Assembly: GCA_046541515.1 (NCBI GenBank)
Contig: JBKHDD010000005.1
Span: 647 to 64,646, forward strand
DNA: 64,000 nucleotides
Reading direction: 5' to 3'
Source: Desulfococcaceae bacterium
GTDB taxonomy: Bacteria; Desulfobacterota; Desulfobacteria; Desulfobacterales; Desulfococcaceae
Shown: positions 42,562-55,546 of the stretch, piece by piece
Numbering within the stretch: the first letter of the stretch is position 1
Layout of the letters: every line of letters begins with the position of its first letter
Made by a program: the position numbers and the translations under genes
Notes under the pieces: generated by a model
What the model was told of the DNA's origin: nothing
Seen by the model: the letters and a program-made list of their open reading frames with translations, nothing else
Databases searched by the model: none

Positions 42562-44709
42562 TCAGGAAGGAATCGCCCTTTCCCTGGGCAACGCCACCGC
42601 AAACGTGCTCCCCTCCCCCGGGCGGCTTTCCAGGAAAATTTCTCCGCCGTGGAGGTGGACCAGGCGGCGGACCAGGGCGAGACCGAGGCCGGTGCCGTCC
42701 TGGGAGCGGGCGAAGCCGCCGTCCACCTGGGTGAACGGCTCGAAAATTTGCTCCAGGGCCTCGGGTTCGATCCCGATGCCCGTATCCCTCACCCGAAAAC
42801 AGACCCGCCCCGGTTCGGTTCGGTCTTCCACCGTCAGCGTGACCATTCCGCCTTCGGGCGTGAATTTGACCGCGTTGGAAAGCAGGTTGACCAGAATCTG
42901 CTTCAATCGGCGCTGATCGGCGAGAATCGTCTCCGTCCGGCCGTTGAAGCGGGAGTAAAGCGTGATCCCTTTCTTCTCCGCCGGGGCGCGGACCATCCGG
43001 AGGCTGCTTTCGCAGATGTCCGGCACCGAAACCGGCGTCACCTCCAACTCCAGCTTTCCCGCTTCGATTTTGGAAATGTCAAGGATGTCGTTGATCAGGG
43101 CCAGGAGATGATTGCCGGCGCGCTCAATGATTTCCAGGCTGTGCAACTGCTTTTGGTTCAGGGGGCCGTAGACTTGATCCTGCAAAGCCTCCGTCATGCC
43201 CAGGACCGCCGTCAACGGAGTCCGAAGTTCGTGGCTCATGTTGGCCAGGAATTCGTCTTTGAGGCGAGCCGCCTTGGCCAGCTCCAGGTTGGCCGCCTCC
43301 AGCTCCCGGGTCCGATCTCCCACGCGGTCCGCCAGGAGGGTCCGTTCCGCCTCCAAGGCGGAACGCATCCGTTGCCGGGCCAAAAAGGAGCCGACCATTT
43401 CGGCGGCGGTTTTGAGCGTCATCACCTCTCCCGCGTCCCATCGCCGGAAATGCGCGCCATCTTCCAGGCCCAAAAAGCCGTAGAGGTCATGCCCCGTCCG
43501 GACCGGGAGCAAAAGGACCGAGCGGGCTTTCCGGCCGGAAAAAAACCAGCGCTCCTCGGGGGGAAATCCACTGACGGCCCCCAGCACGGGGCGATCTTCG
43601 GCGAAGGCCGCAAGCCAACGCTGCAGCCCTTCGTTGAAATGAATGGCTTTCTCGGGAGGGGCCGAACAAGCGGTCTCCCCTTCCCCTCTCCGGATTTCGG
43701 CCACCCCGCGGGCCATCGGTTCGCCGGCGCCATCCTTCTGGTTTTCGTAAAGAAATACGTGACTGGCGCCGGAGGCTTCCATCAGGTGCTCCAATCCGGT
43801 TTCGAGGGCTTCGGGCGAATCGGACAGCAAGGCCCGGGAGCAGGCGGAAAGGCCCTGCTCGTATCGCAAACGCTGGTTCAGCGCCAGTTCGTAGGTTTTT
43901 CGCTGGGAAATATCCCGGGCCGAAACAAAAATTCCGCAAACCCGCCCCTCCTCGTCTCGGACGGGCGTTTTCGTAACGCTGACCCACTCGAGACCCCGGG
44001 GGCCAATCACCTGTTGATCCAAGATCAGCGGCTCGCCGGTTTCCAGAACCTTTTGATCTTCTTCCAAGAACACGCGCGCCTGTTCCGGAGGAAAAAAATC
44101 CAAATCGCCTCGGCCCAGAATTCCGGACCGATCCCGCCAGAGAAATTTGCAGAAAGCCGCGTTGGCCGCCCGATAAATGCCGTTCAAATCCTTGACCATC
44201 ACCAGATCGGGCGTCGCCTCAAACATTGCGTACAGCAACTCGTCACGGCCGCGAAAAAAGCTGAAATTCTCTCGATCGGCCAAAGCCGGCGAAACCCTTT
44301 TCGGCGGGGGCGGGTCCGGCTTGGCGGGAAACGTTCCGCCCAGTCGGGCCGCCTTCTGCACGGCGGACCGCAAGTCGGGGGGCTCAAAGGGACGAAACAG
44401 CGGGATGCCCGGTCCGGCGGCCAACCGGCGACAGGCCGCCACATCCGCCGGATGGGTGAGGAATACCAGGGACGGAGATTCCCCCGCCGCGTCCCGAATT
44501 CCATCGGCTTCGGCCGGGTCCGCGGGGCGTGGCCGGTCCAGGTCGACCAACACCACGTCGGGCCGTTCCGGGGCGCGGGGCAAAAGCGTTTGGGCCGCGA
44601 GAATGTCCGCCGCCATACCAACCACCGCGTATCCGGCGTCGTTCAGCATGTTGGCGAGGGCTTCGGCGGGACCGGGATCCCCTCCGACCAGATACACATG
44701 CAGGGTCAT
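42562..44709 (-). CDS. cytoplasmic sensor histidine kinase: atypical receiver-like N-domain, PAS, GAF-like, HisKA, HATPase
   Basis: N-domain: VYLVGGD..VVLVDLDRP..VFLTHP..LFRPF (receiver-like, with a non-canonical acidic pair and Arg in place of the conserved Lys). PAS: LLYAMFEATPDLVMVKDLNG..ISQRK. H-box FLANMSHELRTPLTAV. N/G boxes NLLSNAVKF..DTGIGI..GTGLGLALV. Confidence 0.88.
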   Translation of the reverse strand: MTLHVYLVGGDPGPAEALANMLNDAGYAVVGMAADILAAQTLLPRAPERPDVVLVDLDRPRPADPAEADGIRDAAGESPSLVFLTHPADVAACRRLAAGPGIPLFRPFEPPDLRSAVQKAARLGGTFPAKPDPPPPKRVSPALADRENFSFFRGRDELLYAMFEATPDLVMVKDLNGIYRAANAAFCKFLWRDRSGILGRGDLDFFPPEQARVFLEEDQKVLETGEPLILDQQVIGPRGLEWVSVTKTPVRDEEGRVCGIFVSARDISQRKTYELALNQRLRYEQGLSACSRALLSDSPEALETGLEHLMEASGASHVFLYENQKDGAGEPMARGVAEIRRGEGETACSAPPEKAIHFNEGLQRWLAAFAEDRPVLGAVSGFPPEERWFFSGRKARSVLLLPVRTGHDLYGFLGLEDGAHFRRWDAGEVMTLKTAAEMVGSFLARQRMRSALEAERTLLADRVGDRTRELEAANLELAKAARLKDEFLANMSHELRTPLTAVLGMTEALQDQVYGPLNQKQLHSLEIIERAGNHLLALINDILDISKIEAGKLELEVTPVSVPDICESSLRMVRAPAEKKGITLYSRFNGRTETILADQRRLKQILVNLLSNAVKFTPEGGMVTLTVEDRTEPGRVCFRVRDTGIGIEPEALEQIFEPFTQVDGGFARSQDGTGLGLALVRRLVHLHGGEIFLESRPGEGSTFAVALPRERAIPS

Positions 44710-46172
44710 TCTTCTTCCCGACAGTTCCGGGTTGGGATCACCATTTCCACCACCAGCCCCTCCCGGTCGGCGCGATTGGCGGCCCGACAGGTCCCGCCCG
44801 CCTCCCAGACGACCACCGCGACCATGGAAAGCCCCAACCCCATTCCGGGCACCTCTCCGGTCTGGTCCTTGTCCCCCTGATAGTAGGGATACCAGATTCT
44901 TCCCAGCTGAAGCGGAGAAAGCCGGATTCCGTCGTCGGTTACGCGGGTTCGAATTCCCTCGGGGGTCGAATCCATCTGAATTCCCACGGCAGGGCGTTTT
45001 TCGGGATGAAATTTCCAGGCGTTTTCCAGCAATTCCAACAAAAGATCCTGGAAGAGCGGGCGGGAAAGGGGGATTTCAACCGATGCCAGGTCCGCCGGAA
45101 ACGCCACCGTCGGCGGTTCGATTCCCAGCGAAGCGGCCGCCTCTTTGGCCAGCCCGCCAATTTCCCCCACCGTGCAACGCTCGGCCCAGCACAATCCGGC
45201 GGAAGTTGTTTGAATATAACGGAAAATATCCAAAATTTCCCTCTGGAGCCGATGCGCGCTGTCGGCCGCCATTTGCGTGAACTCCGCTCGTTCCGAAGGC
45301 TCCATCATTTCCGACTCCGCGACCAGCAGATCCAGGGCGCCGGTCAGCCCGTTGAGCGGGGTCTTGAGCTTGTGGCTGATCTGGCGGTGAAGAGACCAGG
45401 TCATTTTTCGTCCGTCCACCTGGCTCGTCACGTCCCGCAACCGGACCAGGAAGGGTTCCGCCTCCCGGCCGGAAGCGGGCATCAGATCCACCTGGAGCCA
45501 CAGCGCGTTGGCGGCCAGGCAGTCCGGGCGAACCAGATACCGGGGCGCCTCGGCGGGTTCCGGCCAGTTTTCCCAAAGGGATTCGGGGCGTCGCCGGTAC
45601 TCCGGAAGGGCCAGTTCGGGAAACGGCGTCTCCGGCAAGGATTCACCCGACGCGTTCTCCGGCAAGGAGAGAAACCGGCGGGCCTGTGGATTGGCGTACA
45701 GGATCCGTCGTTCCGGCGAAAGGGCCAAAAAGCCGTCGTCGTCCTGCTCCACCACCCATTGGAAGCGACTGCGTTCGTAGACGAGTCGCCGATACCGGTT
45801 GAGGCGCAACAGCGTTCGGACCTGGGCGCGGAGTTCTCCCCGGTTGAAAGGCTTGGACAAAAAATTGTCGGCGCCGGCCTCGATGCCATCCAGACGAGAT
45901 TGGGCGTCGTCCAGGGCCGTGACCATTATGATCGGGATTTCGGAGGTCTTCGGGTCCTCGCGAAGGTTTCGGCACACTTCCTGACCGTTCATGCCCGGCA
46001 TCATCACGTCCAGCAGGATCAGGTCCGGCGGGGTTTCCCGCGCCATTTCCAGGGCCTGGGACCCGTTTTCGGCGAAGCGCAGGCGATAGCTTTCCGAATG
46101 CAGCAGGGCCGCCAGGGTGTCCCGCGCGGATTCGGTGTCGTCAACAATCAGAATGTCCGGCTCGCTGGCCAT
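44706..46172 (-). CDS. receiver-sensor histidine kinase fusion (REC, PAS-like linker, HisKA-like, HATPase)
   Basis: REC: DILIVDDTESARD..LILLDVMMPGMNG..IMVTAL..FLSKPF. H-box-like QISHKLKTPLNGL. N box LLENAWKF and G2 GMGLGLSMV. Its stop overlaps the next start (ATGA at 44706-44709). Confidence 0.85.
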   Translation of the reverse strand: MASEPDILIVDDTESARDTLAALLHSESYRLRFAENGSQALEMARETPPDLILLDVMMPGMNGQEVCRNLREDPKTSEIPIIMVTALDDAQSRLDGIEAGADNFLSKPFNRGELRAQVRTLLRLNRYRRLVYERSRFQWVVEQDDDGFLALSPERRILYANPQARRFLSLPENASGESLPETPFPELALPEYRRRPESLWENWPEPAEAPRYLVRPDCLAANALWLQVDLMPASGREAEPFLVRLRDVTSQVDGRKMTWSLHRQISHKLKTPLNGLTGALDLLVAESEMMEPSERAEFTQMAADSAHRLQREILDIFRYIQTTSAGLCWAERCTVGEIGGLAKEAAASLGIEPPTVAFPADLASVEIPLSRPLFQDLLLELLENAWKFHPEKRPAVGIQMDSTPEGIRTRVTDDGIRLSPLQLGRIWYPYYQGDKDQTGEVPGMGLGLSMVAVVVWEAGGTCRAANRADREGLVVEMVIPTRNCREEE

Positions 46173-47736
46173 GAGAATTCTCCGGAGAAAGGGCGAGAAA
46201 GTTTTCCACCGTTTTAATCAGGGTTCGAAGTCGGACGGGCTTGCTCATGTAGGCGTTGGCGCCGGCCGAAAGGCACCGTTCCCGGTCTCCGGCCATGGCC
46301 AGCGCCGTAATGGCGATCACGGGAACAAAGCGCAATTGGGGGTCGGCGCGAAGATTCCGAATGGCTTCCAGGCCGTCCATATCCGGCATTTGCACATCCA
46401 TTAACATCAGGTCCGGCGGGTTTTGACGAGCGCCCTCCAGGGCTTCGCGACCGGTGAGGGCGGTCCGGACGGCGTAGCCCCGGGATCGGACATAATCGGC
46501 CATGACGGCGGCGCTTTCCGGATTATCCTCGGCGAGGAGAATGGTTGCTTTGGAAGGCGCTCCATCCGCCGCTTCGGCCGGTTTGCGGGAAACGATCTCC
46601 GAGGAATCCTTGGTCTGGCGGTCGGGGAGAGAAAGGGTAAAGCGGTTTCCGGATTCGAGGTGGCATTCCACCGTTATCTGGCCGCCCAACAAGGCGGACA
46701 ATCGCCATGCCATGGGAAACGAAAGGTCGATGTCGCCGGGCGTCTGGATGTCCGGAAAGGCGTCGCCGGAAAGGAAACGCTCCAAGGTTTTCTCGGAGAT
46801 GGCGATCCCCTCCCGGGACAGGGAAAGGCGGAAACGGTTTTCCGCCCGCACGGCGTCCAGGAGGATGGGCCGATCGGGCGCGCCGTCCTTGGCGTATCGG
46901 GCCAATTCCATCAGAATCCGGACCGCCATTTCCGGGTCGGTCCAGATCGTTTCCCCGGGAAGAACATCCCGGATCAACGGGGGCGGCTCCGCCGGGTATT
47001 CCGCGGCGAGACGTTCCCGGCAGGTCCGCAACAATTCGGAAACGGCCACCGGCTCCTTTTGAGCCGTCCGCCGTCCATTTTGAATATGCGCCAGTTCCAG
47101 CAAATCCTCCGAAAACCGAAGCAGGCGACCGATTCTTTCCCGGGACAAGGATGGATCGCCCCCGGCGCTTCCTTCCGATTCCCCGGATTCATCGTGGATG
47201 AGGTTCAGCTCCGCCGTCAGCCGGCGGGCCAGACCCAGAAAGAACCGGTCCATGCTTTTCAACCGCCGACTCAGCGCCTCCTTTTCCGCGTGCAACCGGC
47301 GGGTCCGCGCAGCGACTTTCCGCGACTTTTCGGACCGTTCCCGCCCCAACTCACGGCTTGCGGCCACTCGTTCGGAAGCGCGTTTCACGGTGACCAGAAG
47401 CTGGTCGATTTCACAAGGCTTGCGCAGGTAGCCGTAGGCCCCCAAATTGACCGCCTCGACGGCCGAATCCCGGGAGGCGTGACCGGCAAGAACGATGCAC
47501 TGGGTGCCCGGAGAGAACGTCCGAAGATAACGGATGATTTCCAGCCCGTCGATTTGCGGCGTCCGAAGGTCGATCAGGCCGACGGCGAAGGCGCGCCGAG
47601 CCAGAAGCGGCTTCACCCGCTCCGGCGCTCCCGCGATCGTCACCTTGAATCCCTCTGCTTTCAAAAAAGAGGCCAGGGCTTCCCGGAACAATTCGTCGTC
47701 GTCGACGATCAATACCGATTGAGGATCAATTTCCAT
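46141..47736 (-). CDS. REC - degenerate (pseudo) histidine-kinase core - REC protein
   Basis: ATG at 47736. REC1: VLIVDDDELFRE..GLIDLRTPQIDG..LRKP. The middle has HK-like length and order, but the H-box position reads FFLGLARRLTAEL, the N-box position reads ILMELARYAKDG, and the G boxes are degenerate. REC2: ILLAEDNPESAA..LMLMDVQMPDMDG..AITAL..YMSKP. The first ~490 codons of track ORF 46141..49209 are out-of-frame read-through and were trimmed. Confidence 0.8.
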   Translation of the reverse strand: MEIDPQSVLIVDDDELFREALASFLKAEGFKVTIAGAPERVKPLLARRAFAVGLIDLRTPQIDGLEIIRYLRTFSPGTQCIVLAGHASRDSAVEAVNLGAYGYLRKPCEIDQLLVTVKRASERVAASRELGRERSEKSRKVAARTRRLHAEKEALSRRLKSMDRFFLGLARRLTAELNLIHDESGESEGSAGGDPSLSRERIGRLLRFSEDLLELAHIQNGRRTAQKEPVAVSELLRTCRERLAAEYPAEPPPLIRDVLPGETIWTDPEMAVRILMELARYAKDGAPDRPILLDAVRAENRFRLSLSREGIAISEKTLERFLSGDAFPDIQTPGDIDLSFPMAWRLSALLGGQITVECHLESGNRFTLSLPDRQTKDSSEIVSRKPAEAADGAPSKATILLAEDNPESAAVMADYVRSRGYAVRTALTGREALEGARQNPPDLMLMDVQMPDMDGLEAIRNLRADPQLRFVPVIAITALAMAGDRERCLSAGANAYMSKPVRLRTLIKTVENFLALSPENSHGQRAGHSDC

Positions 47737-47786
47737 TTGTTTCCATGAATCCCGCCGATACGGTTCGAGGGACCTCGCCATTCCCT

Positions 47787-48899
47787 TTACAACTGGATGG
47801 TAAACACGGAACCCCGGGGTTCGTTGGCCTCCGCGAAAATGCGTCCGCCATGGGCTTCCACCACCATTTTGCAAAAAACCAATCCCAGTCCGTATTGCGG
47901 GATGCCCCGTCGTTTCATGTCGGCCACTTCGTATTTTTCGAAAACCCGTTCCCGGCGCCCCTCCGGAATGCCGGGGCCTTCGTCCATCACCCGGACGACG
48001 AGGGCCGGAAATGGACCGGCCTCCTCCCCTGCGACCTCCGCCGGGGAAGGATACCGGGCCCGGATGGTGATCTGCCCCTCGTCCGGAGAAAATTTGATGG
48101 CGTTGCCGATCAGGTTGTCGAAAACCCGGTGCATGAGATTGGGGTCCAACAAAAGGGTCCGGGACTCGTCGGGAAGGTCGTCCACCACCGACACGTCCCG
48201 TCCAATGGCCATTGCGCGGCCGTGGCCCACCGCCGTTCGCAGCAGGTCGGCCACGTCGACGGGTTCCCGCTGGAGGATCGGGTTGCCCGCTTCCATCTTT
48301 GCCAGCATGAGCATGTCGGTCAGGTAATTGTTTAAGCGACCGCCCTGCTCCCGAATTTTTTCGAGACCCCGGTCCGCCTCGGGGGAAAGCCGCCCGGAAA
48401 GTTTCAGAGAAAGAAATTCGCTCATTCCCATGATGACGGAAACGGGGCTCTTCATGTCGTGGACGATCATGTGGGCCAACTCTTCCCGAAGCCGAAGATT
48501 GTCCAGCAACTGGTCGTAAAGCCGCTTGATGCGGAGCATGGAACGGGCCCGCACCCGAAGTTCGCTTCCGCGAACCGGCTTGGAAAGAAATTCGTCGGCC
48601 CCGGCCTGAAACCCGCTCTCCAAGTCCCGGCGACTTTCCAGGGCGGTGACCAGAATGACGGGAATGGGCGAGGTTTCGGGGTTTCCCTTCAGGGTCCGGC
48701 ACACCTCGAATCCGTCCATGCCCGGCATCATCACGTCCAGCAAAATCAGGTCCGGGGCCTGGGCCGCCACCTGTTCCAGGGCTTCGGGACCGTTTCGGGC
48801 GAATCGGAGGCGAAAGGGCTCGGCGGCAAGGAGCGCTTCGAACGTGCTGCGGGCGCCGGGATCGTCGTCCACGACCAGCACGTCGGCGGTTTGGTTCAT
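47787..48899 (-). CDS. receiver-histidine kinase fusion (REC-HisKA-HATPase), cytoplasmic
   Basis: ATG at 48899. REC: VLVVDDDPGARS..LILLDVMMPGMDG..ILVTAL..FLSKPV. H-box MIVHDMKSPVSVI. N/G boxes DNLIGNAIKF..DEGPGIP..GLGLVFCK. Confidence 0.9.
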   Translation of the reverse strand: MNQTADVLVVDDDPGARSTFEALLAAEPFRLRFARNGPEALEQVAAQAPDLILLDVMMPGMDGFEVCRTLKGNPETSPIPVILVTALESRRDLESGFQAGADEFLSKPVRGSELRVRARSMLRIKRLYDQLLDNLRLREELAHMIVHDMKSPVSVIMGMSEFLSLKLSGRLSPEADRGLEKIREQGGRLNNYLTDMLMLAKMEAGNPILQREPVDVADLLRTAVGHGRAMAIGRDVSVVDDLPDESRTLLLDPNLMHRVFDNLIGNAIKFSPDEGQITIRARYPSPAEVAGEEAGPFPALVVRVMDEGPGIPEGRRERVFEKYEVADMKRRGIPQYGLGLVFCKMVVEAHGGRIFAEANEPRGSVFTIQL

Positions 48900-49045: not shown

Positions 49046-49786
49046 TCAATTTTCCGGCGTTTCCAGCAAGGCCCGGGCCTTTCCGACGCTGAAGCGGACG
49101 GGAATGTCCCCCGCTTCCGCGAAGCCTCGCAGGGCTTTCGCCCGTTCCGGCGTGGCGGCCGCGGCGATGGAAATGCCGGCCTCCCGGCATCGATCGCGCA
49201 GAGCGGCAACCAGTTCCACCACGGGGATGTTGATCGCCTCCGTTCCGCTCAAATCGACGATCAGCGCGCGGTGTCCATCGGCCCGGATCCGCTCCACCTC
49301 GGGGCCGATGCCCGGCAACAGCTCGGTCAGCGTGGCCCGGTCCACGGAACGGGGCAGGGTCACGATGATGAGGCCCCCGTCCGCGGCAAAATATTTTCGG
49401 GCGGGATTTCGCCGCGTCGTCAGCGGGACCATCTTGCCGACCTGGGCCAGCAAGGCCTCCCGGTCGAACGGCTTCAAAATATAATAGTCGGCCCCTTCCC
49501 GAATGATGTCCAGCACCCGCTCCCGGCTGGCCTCCGCCGTCAGCATGACGACGGGAATCGATTTCAGGACCGGGTCTATCTTGAGATGGCGCAATGTCTC
49601 CAGGCCGTCCATCACCGGCATGGCCACGTCCAGCAGAATCAGATCCGGCCGTTCGTTCCGGGCCGTTTCCAGACCCATGGCGCCGTTTTCCGCCTCCAGG
49701 ATTCGCACGTCGAACGGTTTCAGAGCCCGCCCCACCAGCGTCCGGATCATTTTGCTGTCGTCGACCGTTAAAATCTTCGCGCCCAT
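49046..49786 (-). CDS. receiver-STAS (anti-sigma-antagonist-like) fusion protein
   Basis: REC: KILTVDDSKMIRT..LILLDVAMPVMDG..VMLTAE..YILKPF. The C-terminal ~110 aa (..GGLIIVTLPRSVDRATLTELL..ALIVDLSGTEAINIPVVELVAALRDRCREAGISIAAA..) has the STAS/SpoIIAA layout but no obvious DSSG phospho-serine motif. Confidence 0.8.
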   Translation of the reverse strand: MGAKILTVDDSKMIRTLVGRALKPFDVRILEAENGAMGLETARNERPDLILLDVAMPVMDGLETLRHLKIDPVLKSIPVVMLTAEASRERVLDIIREGADYYILKPFDREALLAQVGKMVPLTTRRNPARKYFAADGGLIIVTLPRSVDRATLTELLPGIGPEVERIRADGHRALIVDLSGTEAINIPVVELVAALRDRCREAGISIAAAATPERAKALRGFAEAGDIPVRFSVGKARALLETPEN

Positions 49787-49845
49787 CGCGCCTTTCCTTC
49801 CTCGGGCGCCGAGGTCCGGGCCCGCCGGCCGGCCACGACCGTCCG

Positions 49846-50859
49846 CTATTGCAAATTGTAGCGTTTGATTTTTTCCACCAGGGTGGTGCGGTTCAGCCGC
49901 AAAAGGTCCGCGGCCTGCTTTTTCACCCAGCGAGTCCGTTGCAACGACTGCAGGATCAAGGATTTTTCAAATTCGCCGACCGCGGTGGTCAGGCAGATGC
50001 CCTCGTCGGAAAGCCGGACGGCGGGCGAAAACGGGGCCGCCTCGGCGTTGCGAAGGGTGGGGGGGAGGTCATCGGCGCCAATTTCTCCGGCGTCCTTGAG
50101 CACCACCAGCCGTTCCATCAGGTTTTTCAACTCCCGCACGTTCCCCGGCCAAGTGTGGCGGTTCAAAATCTCCCGGGCTTCCGCGGAGATGCCGATAACG
50201 GACGCCTGGTTTTTGCGATTGAAATGGTCCAGGAAAAAATCGGCCAACCGGTCGATGTCTCCGGTGCGGTCCCGCAGGGCGGGCGTATCCAGGGGGATGA
50301 CGTAGAGACGGTAAAACAGGTCCTCCCGAAAGCGACCCTCTCGCACCTCTTCCGCCAGATTTTTGTGGGTCGCGGCAATAATCCGCACGTCCACGGAAAT
50401 CGTTCGGACCCCGCCCACCGGTTCGAAGGCCCGCTCTTCGAGCACCTTGAGCAGTTTGACCTGAAGCTCGGGGCTCATATCCCCGATTTCGTCCAAAAAA
50501 ACGGTGCCGCCGTCGGCCTGTTCAAACTTCCCCATTTTGGGATGGGTGGCCCCGGTGAAGGCGCCCCGAACGTGGCCGAACAGTTCGCTTTCCAGCAGAC
50601 TTTCGGGAATCGCCCCGCAGTTGATCCCCACGAAGGGACGATCCGCTCGGGGGGAGCGGTCGTGGATGGCCCGGGCAACCATGCCTTTGCCGGTGCCGCT
50701 TTCTCCGGAAATCAGAACGGTGCTGTCGCTTCGGCTCAACTTTCGGATCAGCCCGAACAGCTCCCGCATGGGGGGGCTGGCCCCGATCATTTCATTCAGG
50801 CCCGGCGGTCTTTGGAGCTCCAAAGGCGCATCTGCCCCCGGAATCGGTTGGGGAATCAC
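49846..50859 (-). CDS. sigma54-dependent transcriptional activator (AAA+ and Fis-type HTH) lacking any N-terminal regulatory domain
   Basis: GTG at 50859 lies 5 nt after AAGGAGG. Only ~25 residues precede [22 protein letters not shown] (Walker A). GAFTGA motif ([10 protein letters not shown]), Walker [10 protein letters not shown] and C-terminal [24 protein letters not shown] are present. The track start at 50958 reads through a repeat region. Confidence 0.85.
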
Positions 50860-50908
50860 GGAAACCTCCTTGCAATCGCATGGGAAAGTGGCAAAACGCC
50901 CTTCATTT

Positions 50909-50938
50909 TTGCAAAATACAAACTTGCAAAATACAAAC
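50909..50938. repeat. exact tandem duplication of the 15-mer TTGCAAAATACAAAC
   Basis: Read directly from the sequence at 50909-50923 and 50924-50938. A third near-copy TTGCAAAATACAAT lies at 51047-51060. More TTTGCA/TGCAAA motifs occur at 51127-51158. Confidence 0.9.
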
Positions 50939-50941
50939 CAA
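50924..50941 (-). promoter_or_regulatory. candidate sigma54 (-24/-12) promoter for the activator/STAS/kinase cassette
   Basis: The minus strand reads TTGGTTTGTATTTTGCAA, with GG and GC separated by exactly 10 nt and a TTGCA -12 element. It lies ~65 nt upstream of the GTG at 50859. Confidence 0.45.
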
Positions 50942-51136
50942 CGCGAAAAGCTCCCCAAAAAAAATATTTGCCCGATTTTTCAGATGGTTTCACTCCAGCC
51001 GATCCTTGGCGCGCCTTCGCGGGGGAGGAAAATTTCCCGCAAACTTTTGCAAAATACAATGAATTTGGAAGCCCAAGGGCTAATTGCTTGAATTAAATAT
51101 GGAATTTTGTGAAAAAAATCACTGCGTTTTGCAAAC

Positions 51137-52513
51137 TTAATTTGCATTCTGCAAAACCTCGTCGGCGAGACCAAAACTTTTGATCTTTCGGTAGAGGGTG
51201 GTGATATTGATTCCAAGCAATTTGGCGGCGCGGGCCTTGTTGCCTCCGGTGTGTCGAAGGGCGCGGCGAATCATTCGAATTTCGCTTTCCCGAAGGGTCA
51301 GCACCTGACCGCGGGAAGATTCGCCGTCCCCCGCTTCTCCCCGCTCCCGAATTCGGGCGGGCAAATCCTCCGGGCGAATCACGCTGGAACGGCTCAAGGC
51401 CAACGCCCGCTCCACCGCGTTTTCCAGCTCCCGCACGTTGCCGGGCCAGTGATAGGCCAGCAACAGGCGCATGGCCTCGGAGGACACCTCCCCGAAATCC
51501 TTGGCCCCGCCGGCGTAGCGGTTCGCGAAATGCCGAACCAGCGGAGAAATGTCCTCCCGCCGCTCCCGCAGGGGCGGCATTCGGACGGAGACCACGTTGA
51601 GCCGGTAAAACAGGTCCTTGCGAAGAATCCCCTGGGCCAATAGCGTTTCCGGCGTTCGGTTGGTGGCGGCCACCACCCGAACATCCACCGGCAGTTCCCG
51701 GGTGCCGCCCACCGGTCGAATCCGGCGCTCCTGAAGAACCCGAAGCAGCTTGACCTGCAACGGGGGCGAGATTTCCGAAATTTCGTCCAAAAAAAGAGTG
51801 CCGCCGGCCGCGGCGCGAAACAGGCCGTCGTGCTCGCGGACGGCGCCGGTAAAGGCGCCTTTGACGTGGCCAAAGAGTTCGCTTTCCAACAGGCCGTCCA
51901 CCATGGCCCCGCAGTTCACCGGCACGAAGGGTCCGTCGGACCGGGCGCTGTTGCGATGAATGGTCCGGGCCGCCACCTCCTTTCCGGTGCCGCTTTCCCC
52001 CTGGATCAGCACCGTGGGGCTTTTCTCCCGCATCCGCTCGATGCGGTCGTAAATTCGCCGCATGACGGGGCTGACCCCCACCAGCTCCCCGTACCCGGAC
52101 GGATCTTCGAGGCGGGAGCGAAGCCGGCGATTTTCGCGCTGCAACGCCTTCTTCTCGAACACCCGGACGGCCAGCAGTTTTAGCCGGTCGAAATTCAGCG
52201 GCTTCTGCAGGTAGTCGTAGGCGCCCAGCTTCATGGCCTCGATGGCGGAGTCCACGTCGGCGTAGCCGGTCAGGATGATCACTTCCGTGTCCGGGCGGGT
52301 CTCCTTGACGGCGCTCAACAACTCCAGCCCGCCAATTTCCGGCATCAGCAGGTCGGTGAAGACCAGGTCGAACCGCTCTTCCCGGATTCGCTCCAGGGCC
52401 TTCAAGCCGCTGGAAACCGACGCAACCTGGCATTCCAGCAGGGAAAGGTGTTTCACGACGACGTCCAGCATTTCCCGGTCGTCGTCCACGCACAGCACGC
52501 GGTGTTCACTCAT
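51137..52513 (-). CDS. NtrC-family sigma54-dependent response regulator (REC-AAA+-HTH)
   Basis: ATG at 52513 overlaps the motB stop by 8 nt. REC: VLCVDDDREMLD..LVFTDLLMPEIGG..IILTGY..YLQKP. AAA+: IQGESGTGKE, GHVKGAFTGA, LFLDEISE. HTH: GNKARAAKLLGINITTLYRKIKSFGL. Confidence 0.92.
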   Translation of the reverse strand: MSEHRVLCVDDDREMLDVVVKHLSLLECQVASVSSGLKALERIREERFDLVFTDLLMPEIGGLELLSAVKETRPDTEVIILTGYADVDSAIEAMKLGAYDYLQKPLNFDRLKLLAVRVFEKKALQRENRRLRSRLEDPSGYGELVGVSPVMRRIYDRIERMREKSPTVLIQGESGTGKEVAARTIHRNSARSDGPFVPVNCGAMVDGLLESELFGHVKGAFTGAVREHDGLFRAAAGGTLFLDEISEISPPLQVKLLRVLQERRIRPVGGTRELPVDVRVVAATNRTPETLLAQGILRKDLFYRLNVVSVRMPPLRERREDISPLVRHFANRYAGGAKDFGEVSSEAMRLLLAYHWPGNVRELENAVERALALSRSSVIRPEDLPARIRERGEAGDGESSRGQVLTLRESEIRMIRRALRHTGGNKARAAKLLGINITTLYRKIKSFGLADEVLQNAN

Positions 52514-54060: not shown

Positions 54061-55233
54061 TTATCCCCTTATGGAATCTCTGTAAACAAAGACCCGGTCG
54101 GTCACCCCGGCCAGTTCCCGGTTCTTTTTGAGTTTTTCGATGCCGTGGGCGTCCAGCCGGCTGCCGCCGGGCAACAGAAGGGCCCCGGTGGGACGGCGAA
54201 CCTCCCGGGCCAGCCGCATGCCCGGCGCCAGCTCCTCCAGCGGAAGCTCCACGTCCACCCGCCGGGCCTCGGCCGCCTCCAGTTCGCCGGCGTGGGCGAT
54301 CAGGATATCCGTCAGCGCCGGCTCCAGTTGATAGCCGCGCATCCGCCGGAGTTGATCCGGCGTTTCGCCGATCCGGAAGCCGCCGCGATGAAGCAGATTG
54401 TCGAACACCGACGCGGCGTTGATGATTCGGGCGCCCAGGGGCGCCGCGTCCCCGACCAGTCCGTCGGGAAAGCCGCGGCCGTTGTACTGTTCGTGATGGG
54501 ACCGCACCAGGTCGGCGGCCGGGGCGAGAAACTCGATCTCCCGCAGCAGAACCTCCCCAAGCACGGGATGGGAACGGTAGAGCTTGACTTCGTCCCCGGT
54601 CATTTCGGTTCGACTTTTGAAAAGGATTTCCTGGGGGAGGCCGATCATGCCAATGTCGTGGAGCAGGGCGGCCGTTTCCAGTTCGGGAAGGTCTTCGAAT
54701 TTCACGCCGGGAAGACGCTCCGCCAGGAGAAGCGAAAGCTCCGCAACGCGGCGGGAATGGCCGCCCAGGGCATTGTCGAAGGTTTCGATCAGTTGATTGA
54801 ACATCCGGATGGTCTGGTAATAATTGGCGCGAATCCGCTCGTATCGTCGGGTCAGCTCGCTTTCCAAGCCCACGATCCGCTCGCCGATTTCCACCCGCGC
54901 CTCGAATTCGTCGTGGCGAACCGGCTTGGTGATGAAGTCGTCGATGCCGCCTTCCAGGCCCCGCACGACGTCCTGGGGGCGGTTCATTCCGCTGACGATG
55001 ATAAAATAGGTATAGCGGGAGTGGCCCGCCCCGCGAATTCGCTGGCATAGCTCAATCCCGCCAATGTCCGGCATCATCCAGTCCGACACCACCATGGGCG
55101 GCTTCCGGTCCATCCAGGTCGCCCAAGCTTTTCGTCCGTCGATCACCGGGAGCGGCTCGTGCCCCATGTGCCGGATGAACATTTCCAGCATTTCCAGATG
55201 ATCGCGATCATCTTCCGCAACCAAAATCTGCAT
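54061..55233 (-). CDS. receiver-HD-GYP c-di-GMP phosphodiesterase (RpfG-like) with an extra C-terminal domain
   Basis: REC: ILVAEDDRDHLE..MVVSDWMMPDIGG..FIIVSG..FITKPV. HD-GYP: GGHSRRVAEL..AALLHDIGMIG..RSHHEQYNGRGFPDGL (GFP variant of GYP). About 90 further residues follow (..LEELAPGMRLAREVRRPTGALLLPGGSRLDAHGIEKL..). Ends 1 nt before motA. Confidence 0.88.
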   Translation of the reverse strand: MQILVAEDDRDHLEMLEMFIRHMGHEPLPVIDGRKAWATWMDRKPPMVVSDWMMPDIGGIELCQRIRGAGHSRYTYFIIVSGMNRPQDVVRGLEGGIDDFITKPVRHDEFEARVEIGERIVGLESELTRRYERIRANYYQTIRMFNQLIETFDNALGGHSRRVAELSLLLAERLPGVKFEDLPELETAALLHDIGMIGLPQEILFKSRTEMTGDEVKLYRSHPVLGEVLLREIEFLAPAADLVRSHHEQYNGRGFPDGLVGDAAPLGARIINAASVFDNLLHRGGFRIGETPDQLRRMRGYQLEPALTDILIAHAGELEAAEARRVDVELPLEELAPGMRLAREVRRPTGALLLPGGSRLDAHGIEKLKKNRELAGVTDRVFVYRDSIRG

Positions 55234-55330: not shown

Positions 55331-55346
55331 TGCAATATCCGTTCCC
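55331..55346 (-). promoter_or_regulatory. candidate sigma54 promoter for the HD-GYP-motAB-ntrC operon
   Basis: The minus strand reads GGGAACGGATATTGCA against consensus TGGCACG-N4-TTGCA. GG/GC spacing is exact and AC, G and TTGCA match. It lies ~95 nt upstream of the ATG at 55233. Confidence 0.5.
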
Positions 55347-55530
55347 AATCCAAAACCCACTTTCCATCCCGGTCCCAAGGCGCTTCATCGGTTTTCAATG
55401 CTGTCTTCGTCAAAATGCTGACGGACCGCGTCGAGGAATCGGTCAAAGGGGCGGTCCTCTATATGCCATCCCGAGAACGAACCCGCCATTTTTTCCCTCG
55501 GAAAGGACCCTTTTTTGCCTCTCCGATGTT

Positions 55531-55546
55531 CGGTATGGCTTTTGCA
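55531..55546 (+). promoter_or_regulatory. candidate sigma54 promoter for the flgB operon
   Basis: The plus strand reads CGGTATGGCTTTTGCA, with exact GG-N10-GC spacing and a TTGCA -12 element. It is ~280 nt upstream of the flgB ATG, which implies a long leader. Confidence 0.4.

Follow-up and report, generated by a model that had tools for sequence, protein, structure and literature searches.

Among described systems, the closest to the one considered here is that of Desulfovibrio vulgaris Hildenborough, whose flagellar sigma54 activator DVU2894 has no N-terminal domain and is FlrA/FleQ-like by phylogeny of its AAA+ domain (PMC4641369; Rajeev et al. 2011, PMC3333781). The site predicted for DVU2894 is yGTCA-N6-TGACr, and a second flagellar enhancer-binding protein (EBP), DVU1063, has been described alongside it (Kazakov et al. 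2015, PMC4641369). Activators of this domain-less kind pose the question of what restrains an ATPase that would be active by default; in the Desulfobacterota flagellar case this was left open by the 2015 D. vulgaris regulome paper, whose authors proposed "a partner protein ... or a regulatory cascade" (PMC4641369). Here we describe a gene pair from a Desulfococcaceae bacterium, found in a 64,000-nucleotide stretch of DNA that we call the window (GenBank assembly GCA_046541515.1, contig JBKHDD010000005.1, positions 647 to 64,646), in which a sigma54 activator without a sensory domain (the short EBP) is followed by a protein that joins a phospho-receiver (REC) to a STAS domain (REC-STAS).

Our explanation of the locus has two layers. 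In the first, which we consider likely to be correct, the short EBP is the FleQ/FlrA-type flagellar activator of its lineage, lacking any N-terminal domain, expressed from its own promoter, binding GTCA-N6-TGAC boxes and taking part in a cascade. In the second, REC-STAS would act in trans as a partner that binds the AAA+ domain of the short EBP; this is the best single hypothesis for the protein, to be read as possible rather than probable. Taken together, the two layers form the best explanation we can offer for the locus as a whole, albeit a tentative one. REC-STAS, together with the chemotaxis protein CheX, would then be a concrete and widely conserved candidate answer to the question raised above, accompanied by a predicted DNA site and promoters. 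The genes concerned are as follows.

49846-50859, minus strand: short EBP, 337 amino acids, AAA+ domain plus Fis-type helix-turn-helix (HTH) (Pfam, ribosome-binding site, orthologue alignment, PDB matches)
49046-49786, minus strand: REC-STAS, 246 amino acids, phospho-receiver with D53 plus STAS fold (Pfam, alignment, AlphaFold, fold search)
51137-52513, minus strand: NtrC-type activator, REC-AAA+-HTH with a canonical receiver (Pfam; synteny in locus L001)
54061-55233, minus strand: REC-HD-GYP gene, heading the operon of motAB and the NtrC-type EBP (Pfam)
42562-48899, minus strand: four receiver-linked kinase/pseudokinase genes after REC-STAS, candidate phosphodonors (Pfam)
From 55828, divergent: flgB-flgC-fliE-fliF

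A sigma54 activator without a sensory domain

The short EBP matches Sigma54_activat at residues 24-190 (PF00158, E=1.5e-71), AAA_lid_14 at 196-274 and HTH_8 at 295-334, with Walker A, Walker B and the GAFTGA loop all in place, and its N-terminal part has no Pfam match. Translation from GTG at 50859, 5 nt past an AAGGAGG sequence, gives the 337-residue form; the public gene call (P0001, 314 amino acids) begins at an internal ATG at 50790 (M24). The longer form is favoured by the AAGGAGG sequence as well as by orthologue length, and with either start there is no space for a REC, GAF, PAS or V4R domain. The initial annotation had seen an EBP that lacks a sensory domain, while allowing that the true start might lie further upstream and encode one. 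This was checked and is excluded by the reading frame, which measures 377 amino acids from stop to stop and has room for 40 extra codons at most: since the frame is closed 40 codons upstream, no sensory domain can be hidden there. The spacer of 277 nt between the NtrC-type EBP and short EBP genes contains a promoter and repeats, and no receiver-like match was seen between the two genes, so that both a hidden upstream start and a decayed N-terminal domain were rejected. In an alignment of 16 short-EBP orthologues little sequence precedes the AAA+ domain, and what there is shows no conservation; a single homologue of 429 amino acids (P0005) carries an extension that is not conserved either and that resembles a mis-called start. 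The absence of a sensory domain is a trait of the whole clade. One detail of the initial annotation calls for adjustment: the distance of about 25 residues that it gave from the start to Walker A fits the AAA+ boundary, some 23 residues in, and not Walker A itself, which occupies residues 52-59 and thus lies about 50 residues in.

A protein search returned hundreds of Desulfobacterales homologues of 330-360 amino acids at 60-68% identity, several of which have been named "sigma-54 specific flagellar transcriptional regulator A" by the Joint Genome Institute (JGI). Structures in the PDB matched by the short EBP include ZraR, NifA, FleQ and FlrA, the last two being among the best matches to its AAA+ domain, and alignment to PDB entry 8p53 shows that the HTH recognition helix, RTTLVEK, is that of Pseudomonas aeruginosa FleQ. 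In all loci examined the short EBP gene lies beside flgBC-fliEF. No NCBIfam equivalog cut-off was reached by either of the two EBPs or by the STAS part of REC-STAS. Judged by these sequence comparisons, the short EBP is part of a large Desulfobacterales clade of FleQ/FlrA-like flagellar activators without an N-terminal domain, and a domain-less FleQ/FlrA-like EBP is of a kind already known from DVU2894. FleQ-like sensing of cyclic di-GMP (c-di-GMP) by the short EBP was rejected because the FleQ contact residues are not conserved: in the same alignment R144 (in LFRS), N186, E330 and R334 are replaced by N/E, A, F and H, respectively. The N-terminal, degenerate receiver domain of FleQ is likewise lacking.

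The clade also has a signature of its own. Walker A of the short EBP reads GESGTGKG (window positions 50683-50706), with Gly in place of the usual EBP Glu, and GE[ST]GTGKG is found in every short-EBP orthologue of at least 56% identity, including those of loci L003-L033. In most of these orthologues GHV[RK]GAFTGA replaces GHEKGAFTGA. The GKE form of Walker A is kept both by the neighbouring REC-EBPs and by the short EBPs of a second type, found in family f7.

The genome surveyed (5.25 Mb in 321 contigs) encodes sigma54 itself (a Sigma54_DBD match of 217 bits on contig C2) and about 26 full-length sigma54 activators. Outside the window, on contig C34 (7764-8828), there is a second activator without an N-terminal domain, 354 amino acids long; the next gene directly downstream is clpB, which has a sigma54-type promoter, TTGGCTTGAATATTGCT, in front of it (C34:9100-9205).

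Promoters, FleQ-type boxes and the two activators

On the minus strand the genes run in the order REC-HD-GYP, motA, motB, NtrC-type EBP, short EBP, REC-STAS and the four kinase/pseudokinase genes. The conventional NtrC-type activator that the initial annotation had placed immediately upstream of the short EBP is indeed there; its best PDB matches are NtrC4 and NtrC1, and its gene is the last of the operon that begins with REC-HD-GYP, motA and motB. The following sites were found around these genes.

50925-50940, minus strand: sigma54-type promoter TGGTTTGTATTTTGCA, spaced GG-N10-GC; the short EBP starts about 65 nt further downstream
50906-51149, no strand assigned: TTTGCAAA-type words in a cluster that overlaps the short EBP promoter and extends upstream of it; candidate enhancer for another activator
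55331-55346, minus strand: sigma54-type promoter GGGAACGGATATTGCA of the REC-HD-GYP/motAB/NtrC-type EBP operon
55409-55422, no strand assigned: GTCAAAATGCTGAC, an exact GTCA-N6-TGAC palindrome of the FleQ-box/DVU2894 type, between divergent sigma54 promoters
55531-55546, plus strand: sigma54-type promoter CGGTATGGCTTTTGCA upstream of flgB, read from sequence

When at least 9 of 12 consensus positions were required to match, with GG and GC fixed, 27 of 29 orthologous loci had a sigma54 site equivalent to that of the short EBP. The short EBP would be transcribed from this promoter together with REC-STAS and probably with the four kinases. A spacer of 59 nt separates the stop codon of the short EBP from the REC-STAS gene, no terminator-like site was seen on the minus strand after either of the two genes, and the four-kinase cassette that follows REC-STAS recurs in loci L001 and L002.

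The GTCA-N6-TGAC box is found at the same place in the locus of a 78%-identical relative (L001). More distant loci have the order short EBP, then (where present) the REC-EBP, then flgB, and in 13 of 27 loci the first 650 nt downstream of the short EBP contain an exact box, which places it upstream of the REC-EBP or of flgB. As only 5.7% of random 650-nt windows contain an exact box, the binomial probability of this is about 1e-9. We propose that the short EBP binds these boxes and that from the box at 55409-55422 it would turn on both of the divergent promoters, that of flgB and that of the REC-HD-GYP-motAB operon. Because this operon ends with the NtrC-type activator, the two activators would form a cascade, the direction of which we infer. 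Conserved cis-elements thus lend good support to a two-activator cascade in which the binding itself is predicted.

Two features of the short EBP's own promoter weigh against this scheme as it stands. No GTCA-N6-TGAC box was found in the promoter region of the short EBP, so that, to judge from the sequence, some other activator would have to start its expression, and the order of the cascade is put forward as tentative; a feedback loop on the short EBP is possible. In addition, the short EBP has a sigma54 promoter of its own, so that either of the two EBPs might top the hierarchy. The suggestion in the initial annotation that the two EBPs act hierarchically, as in FlrA/FlrC-type cascades, gains support from the FleQ-like helix and from the boxes at the NtrC-type EBP operon and at flgB, here and in relatives.

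A candidate for the other activator's target is the TTTGCAAA-type cluster. Three of the four copies of TTTGCAAA in the window lie in this cluster, which is the densest of its type in the genome (14 overlapping matches against 6 for the next), and related words occur upstream of short-EBP orthologues in 24 of 29 loci. The cluster matches neither the DVU1063 site, GGCA-N4-TGCC, nor the FleQ box. The idea of a general flagellar enhancer was discarded, the cluster being without a counterpart elsewhere in the genome.

REC-STAS as a candidate partner

The receiver of REC-STAS is a clear match to PF00072 (E=1.2e-26), and D9, D10, D53, T83 and K105 are invariant in an alignment of 28 REC-STAS sequences. 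Taken alone, the window protein gives a sub-threshold STAS_2 match (E=0.009); PF01740, however, matches the C-termini of 15 of 16 REC-STAS orthologues. An AlphaFold model of the C-terminal 123 amino acids (mean predicted local distance difference test, pLDDT, of 90.8) finds RsbS, RsfB and SpoIIAA in Foldseek searches with TM scores of 0.67-0.73, while the full-length model returned receivers only. The phosphorylatable Ser found at the start of helix 2 in classical STAS proteins (DSSG) is missing: the position of the SpoIIAA phospho-serine is V, I or L across the REC-STAS family and falls at I186-P187 in the window protein. The description of this gene in the initial annotation, as a receiver fused to a STAS domain without the phospho-serine motif, thus stands on the PF01740 matches of the orthologues, the C-terminal model and the V/I/L position. 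No gene for an RsbW-type protein or a sigma factor was found near REC-STAS in any locus examined; the neighbours are HisKA/HATPase_c kinases, CheX, HDOD proteins and EBPs. REC-STAS is best described as an uncharacterised STAS protein that, we propose, is switched at its Asp.

The subfamily is a small one, with 196 representative clusters in 1.84 billion proteins, and its STAS domain is always joined to receivers, as REC-STAS, as REC-REC-STAS or in rare longer forms. Two of the latter, REC-HD-GYP-REC-STAS (P0303, 626 amino acids) and REC-Hpt-REC-STAS (P0372, 508 amino acids), may point to connections with c-di-GMP turnover and with phosphorelays. REC-STAS was also considered as the main CheY of the cell and rejected: its receiver is 32% identical to canonical CheY, and three stand-alone canonical cheY genes (50-55% identity) lie elsewhere, on contigs C26 and C27. 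Two of these stand in tandem on C26 (28161-29579), followed by the only CheX-like match in the genome, a weak one (26% identity). Orthologues of CheX, HDOD, FlbT and FlaF were not found in this genome; the position of REC-STAS next to the EBP has nonetheless been kept.

The proposed partnership rests largely on gene neighbourhood, which we compared across 59 species with a full-length REC-STAS. The usual order is hyp111-HDOD-...-CheX-RECSTAS-shortEBP-(REC-EBP)-flgBC. The short EBP lies within 1 kb of REC-STAS in 24 of 43 loci (downstream in 23, upstream in one), and a limit of 6 kb raises the count to 30. The two are adjacent in three different gene orders: CheX-RECSTAS-EBP; EBP-RECSTAS-kinases, as in the window, L001 and L002; and motAB-EBP-RECSTAS, in L061, where nothing further follows REC-STAS and neither a kinase nor CheX is near. 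Among 200 genomes of the same class, 31 have a short-EBP orthologue, 28 a full-length REC-STAS and 26 both; put differently, REC-STAS accompanies the EBP orthologue in 26 of 31 genomes and occurs in only 2 of the 170 that lack this orthologue, at least one of these two cases lying at a contig end. Adjacency in most species and in three gene orders supports a functional link between REC-STAS and the EBP, and points to REC-STAS as a conserved companion of both the short EBP and CheX.

How might such a link work? With no regulatory domain attached, an AAA+ core should by default be active, and control would therefore have to lie in how much of it is made and in a trans-acting partner. In this genome the adjacent kinases would set the phosphorylation of the REC-STAS Asp, which in most relatives CheX would reset. 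The state of the receiver would expose or hide a protein-binding surface of the STAS domain, and this surface would bind the AAA+ domain of the activator, inhibition being more probable than stimulation. The data suggest, then, that an adaptor, REC-STAS, may supply the control that the sensorless activator lacks. A broader version, which we regard as rather doubtful, would have REC-STAS stand for a new class of response regulator: CheA or receiver-kinases would phosphorylate its Asp, CheX would remove the phosphate, and the STAS domain so switched would bind the AAA+ ring of a sensorless FleQ-type activator. In that case fast phosphosignalling of the chemotaxis type would directly gate sigma54-dependent flagellar transcription, and EBPs would have in REC-STAS a novel type of anti-activator or co-activator.

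A number of observations weigh against a partnership of REC-STAS with the short EBP. All contact between the two is something we infer, and no AAA+ fusion of the STAS subfamily was found among the 196 clusters, of which eight long ones were examined; REC, Hpt and HD-GYP were the only domains seen joined to it. The co-occurrence may in part reflect shared family ancestry. CheX accompanies REC-STAS at least as constantly as the EBP does, lying directly upstream in 43 of the 54 loci that have room for it; in 13 of 43 loci there is no short EBP within 6 kb of REC-STAS, and in family f15 the two genes are about 300 kb apart. In two loci (L024, 8165-9053; L025, 8466-9212) HDOD and the EBP have been kept while CheX and REC-STAS are both gone, and the EBP can therefore work without REC-STAS. 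In three families (f7, f18 and f6) a plain canonical CheY occupies the REC-STAS slot. Finally, in Verrucomicrobiota (L094, 5512-10742; also L092-L101) HDOD, CheX and a 374-amino-acid REC-REC-STAS protein, the first receiver of which is 55-59% identical to the window receiver, occur with a receiver-containing EBP and no short EBP.

Three further features of these loci can be recorded here. The joint absence in L024 and L025 of the CheX and REC-STAS genes that usually separate HDOD from the short EBP resembles loss as a unit. In the f7 locus L029 (7328-8763) a canonical CheY of 124 amino acids overlaps by 4 nt the gene of a domain-less EBP of the GKE type, with a large TPR protein, a REC-EBP and flgC-fliE-fliF downstream; a receiver protein ahead of a sensorless EBP is thus a recurring theme, even without STAS. 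The Verrucomicrobiota loci encode two more proteins, of 317 and 397 amino acids, the second of which is loosely TPR-like by eye.

The close tie to CheX invites another reading, which we consider unlikely, in which REC-STAS is a kinase-docked receiver resembling a fusion of CheS and CheY1. Its STAS domain would dock on a kinase at the ATPase domain, the kinase being CheA in most relatives and one of the four adjacent receiver-kinases in this genome, and its receiver, kept there, would serve as a phosphate sink or relay that shapes the signalling of the NtrC-type activator or of chemotaxis, leaving the short EBP untouched. The classical partners of STAS domains are GHKL-type ATPases (SpoIIAB, RsbW and RsbT), with which the fold matches agree, and the STAS-only protein CheS, encoded by a gene beside cheY1, binds CheA and speeds the dephosphorylation of CheY1 (PMC12654446). 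CheX, directly upstream in so many species, is a CheY-P phosphatase; four HATPase_c proteins follow REC-STAS in the window, the operon of the NtrC-type EBP has no kinase gene of its own and a REC-Hpt-REC-STAS fusion exists. Most species, however, have no kinase gene near REC-STAS, which is not usually found within che operons; in L061 the EBP and REC-STAS stand together with neither kinase nor CheX near, and no STAS-HATPase fusion was seen among the same 196 clusters (eight long ones examined).

The sharing of the REC-STAS slot with CheY can also be read, again improbably in our view, as a sign that the short EBP has no post-translational partner encoded here. The activator would then be controlled by its amount, through the sigma54 promoter and the TTTGCAAA enhancer, or by an ATPase of the FleN/FlhG type, and REC-STAS, as a variant of CheY, would act on the motor or stator and be found here merely through the clustering of flagellar, stator and chemotaxis genes. 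In keeping with this, the EBP gene is itself sigma54-dependent by its predicted promoter in nearly all loci (27 of 29), the EBP persists without REC-STAS in L024 and L025, plain CheY genes fill the slot in other families, even overlapping the EBP gene by 4 nt, motAB is adjacent here and in L061 and L055, and FleQ is under the control of FleN in Pseudomonas. What argues against this reading is that REC-STAS tracks the EBP through three rearrangements in which CheX, HDOD, kinases and motAB come and go, and that three canonical CheY genes are present elsewhere in the genome. Should REC-STAS prove to be only a chemotaxis accessory, the locus would be an ordinary, well-organised flagellar regulatory region.

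Still less likely is an HsbA-like partner switch, in which, according to the phosphorylation of the receiver, the STAS domain sequesters FlgM, freeing sigma28, or binds an HDOD or HD-GYP c-di-GMP protein, and late flagellar genes or c-di-GMP rather than the sigma54 activator are affected: PA3347/HsbA does bind FlgM when unphosphorylated (PMC8256260), FlgM is encoded in this genome, HDOD often neighbours CheX and REC-STAS, a REC-HD-GYP gene heads the adjacent operon in the window and a REC-HD-GYP-REC-STAS fusion exists (P0303), but FlgM lies on another contig (C176) and outside all the REC-STAS neighbourhoods examined, there is no RsbW-type serine kinase next to REC-STAS, the genome lacks the HDOD orthologue while retaining REC-STAS, and a single HD-GYP fusion cluster was found.

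Comparison with known systems

DVU2894 is the nearest published case and shares with the short EBP the lack of an N-terminal domain, the likeness to FlrA and FleQ, the GTCA-N6-TGAC site and the presence of a second, receiver-containing EBP. The two differ in that DVU2894 has GAFTHA and no conserved sigma54 promoter nearby, whereas in the short EBP the loop reads GAFTGA, Walker A is of the GKG form and the sigma54 promoter is conserved. The second activators differ also: DVU1063 resembles FlbD, its receiver is atypical and its site is GGCA-N4-TGCC, whilst the NtrC-type EBP of the window has a canonical receiver. A REC-STAS neighbour is not mentioned in the description of DVU2894.

Cascades of two sigma54 activators of the sort proposed here operate on flagellar genes in P. 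aeruginosa (FleQ/FleN with FleS-FleR) and in Vibrio cholerae (FlrA with FlrB-FlrC). The likeness to FleQ extends to the identical RTTLVEK helix and to a GTCA-N6-TGAC box upstream of the operon of the second activator. FleN, moreover, regulates FleQ in trans and does so on its AAA+ domain. Unlike FleQ, the short EBP has neither the N-terminal domain nor the c-di-GMP contacts, and its promoter is of the sigma54 instead of the sigma70 type; unlike the kinases of the FleQ and FlrA systems, those found here are receiver-linked and encoded after REC-STAS, not beside the second activator. In Geobacter, the receiver-containing flagellar EBP FgrM is said to be fed by a multi-step relay with the kinases GHK4 and GHK3 (reportedly described by Ueki et al. 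in 2012), one kinase of which reportedly has an N-terminal receiver like the kinases after REC-STAS; we know of no domain-less EBP or REC-STAS in that system.

With PspF-PspA and HrpR/S-HrpV the short EBP shares an architecture of AAA+ (plus HTH) only and the expectation of control by a binding partner. The candidate partner here is a receiver-STAS protein, whereas that of PspF is the coiled-coil protein PspA and that of HrpR/S is of the HrpV type, and the AAA+ domain of the short EBP scores 188 bits against PspF as opposed to 281 bits against FleQ.

As regards REC-STAS itself, the CheS-CheA-CheY1 system of Sinorhizobium meliloti is similar in bringing together a STAS domain, a CheY-type receiver and a phosphatase-like function in a flagellar or chemotaxis setting. 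REC-STAS resembles CheS and CheY1 fused, with CheX as its usual neighbour, whereas CheS is a separate protein encoded in a che operon. In the HptB-HsbR-HsbA system (PA3346/PA3347), finally, the expression of flagellar genes depends on a STAS protein that a phosphorelay controls, there by way of FlgM. HsbA consists of STAS only and is switched by serine phosphorylation; REC-STAS lacks the serine and has its STAS domain fused to a receiver, and an aspartyl phosphate would therefore be its switch. A STAS domain switched by a receiver, with no need of a serine kinase, would extend partner switching into two-component signalling, whichever of the proposed targets is the true one.

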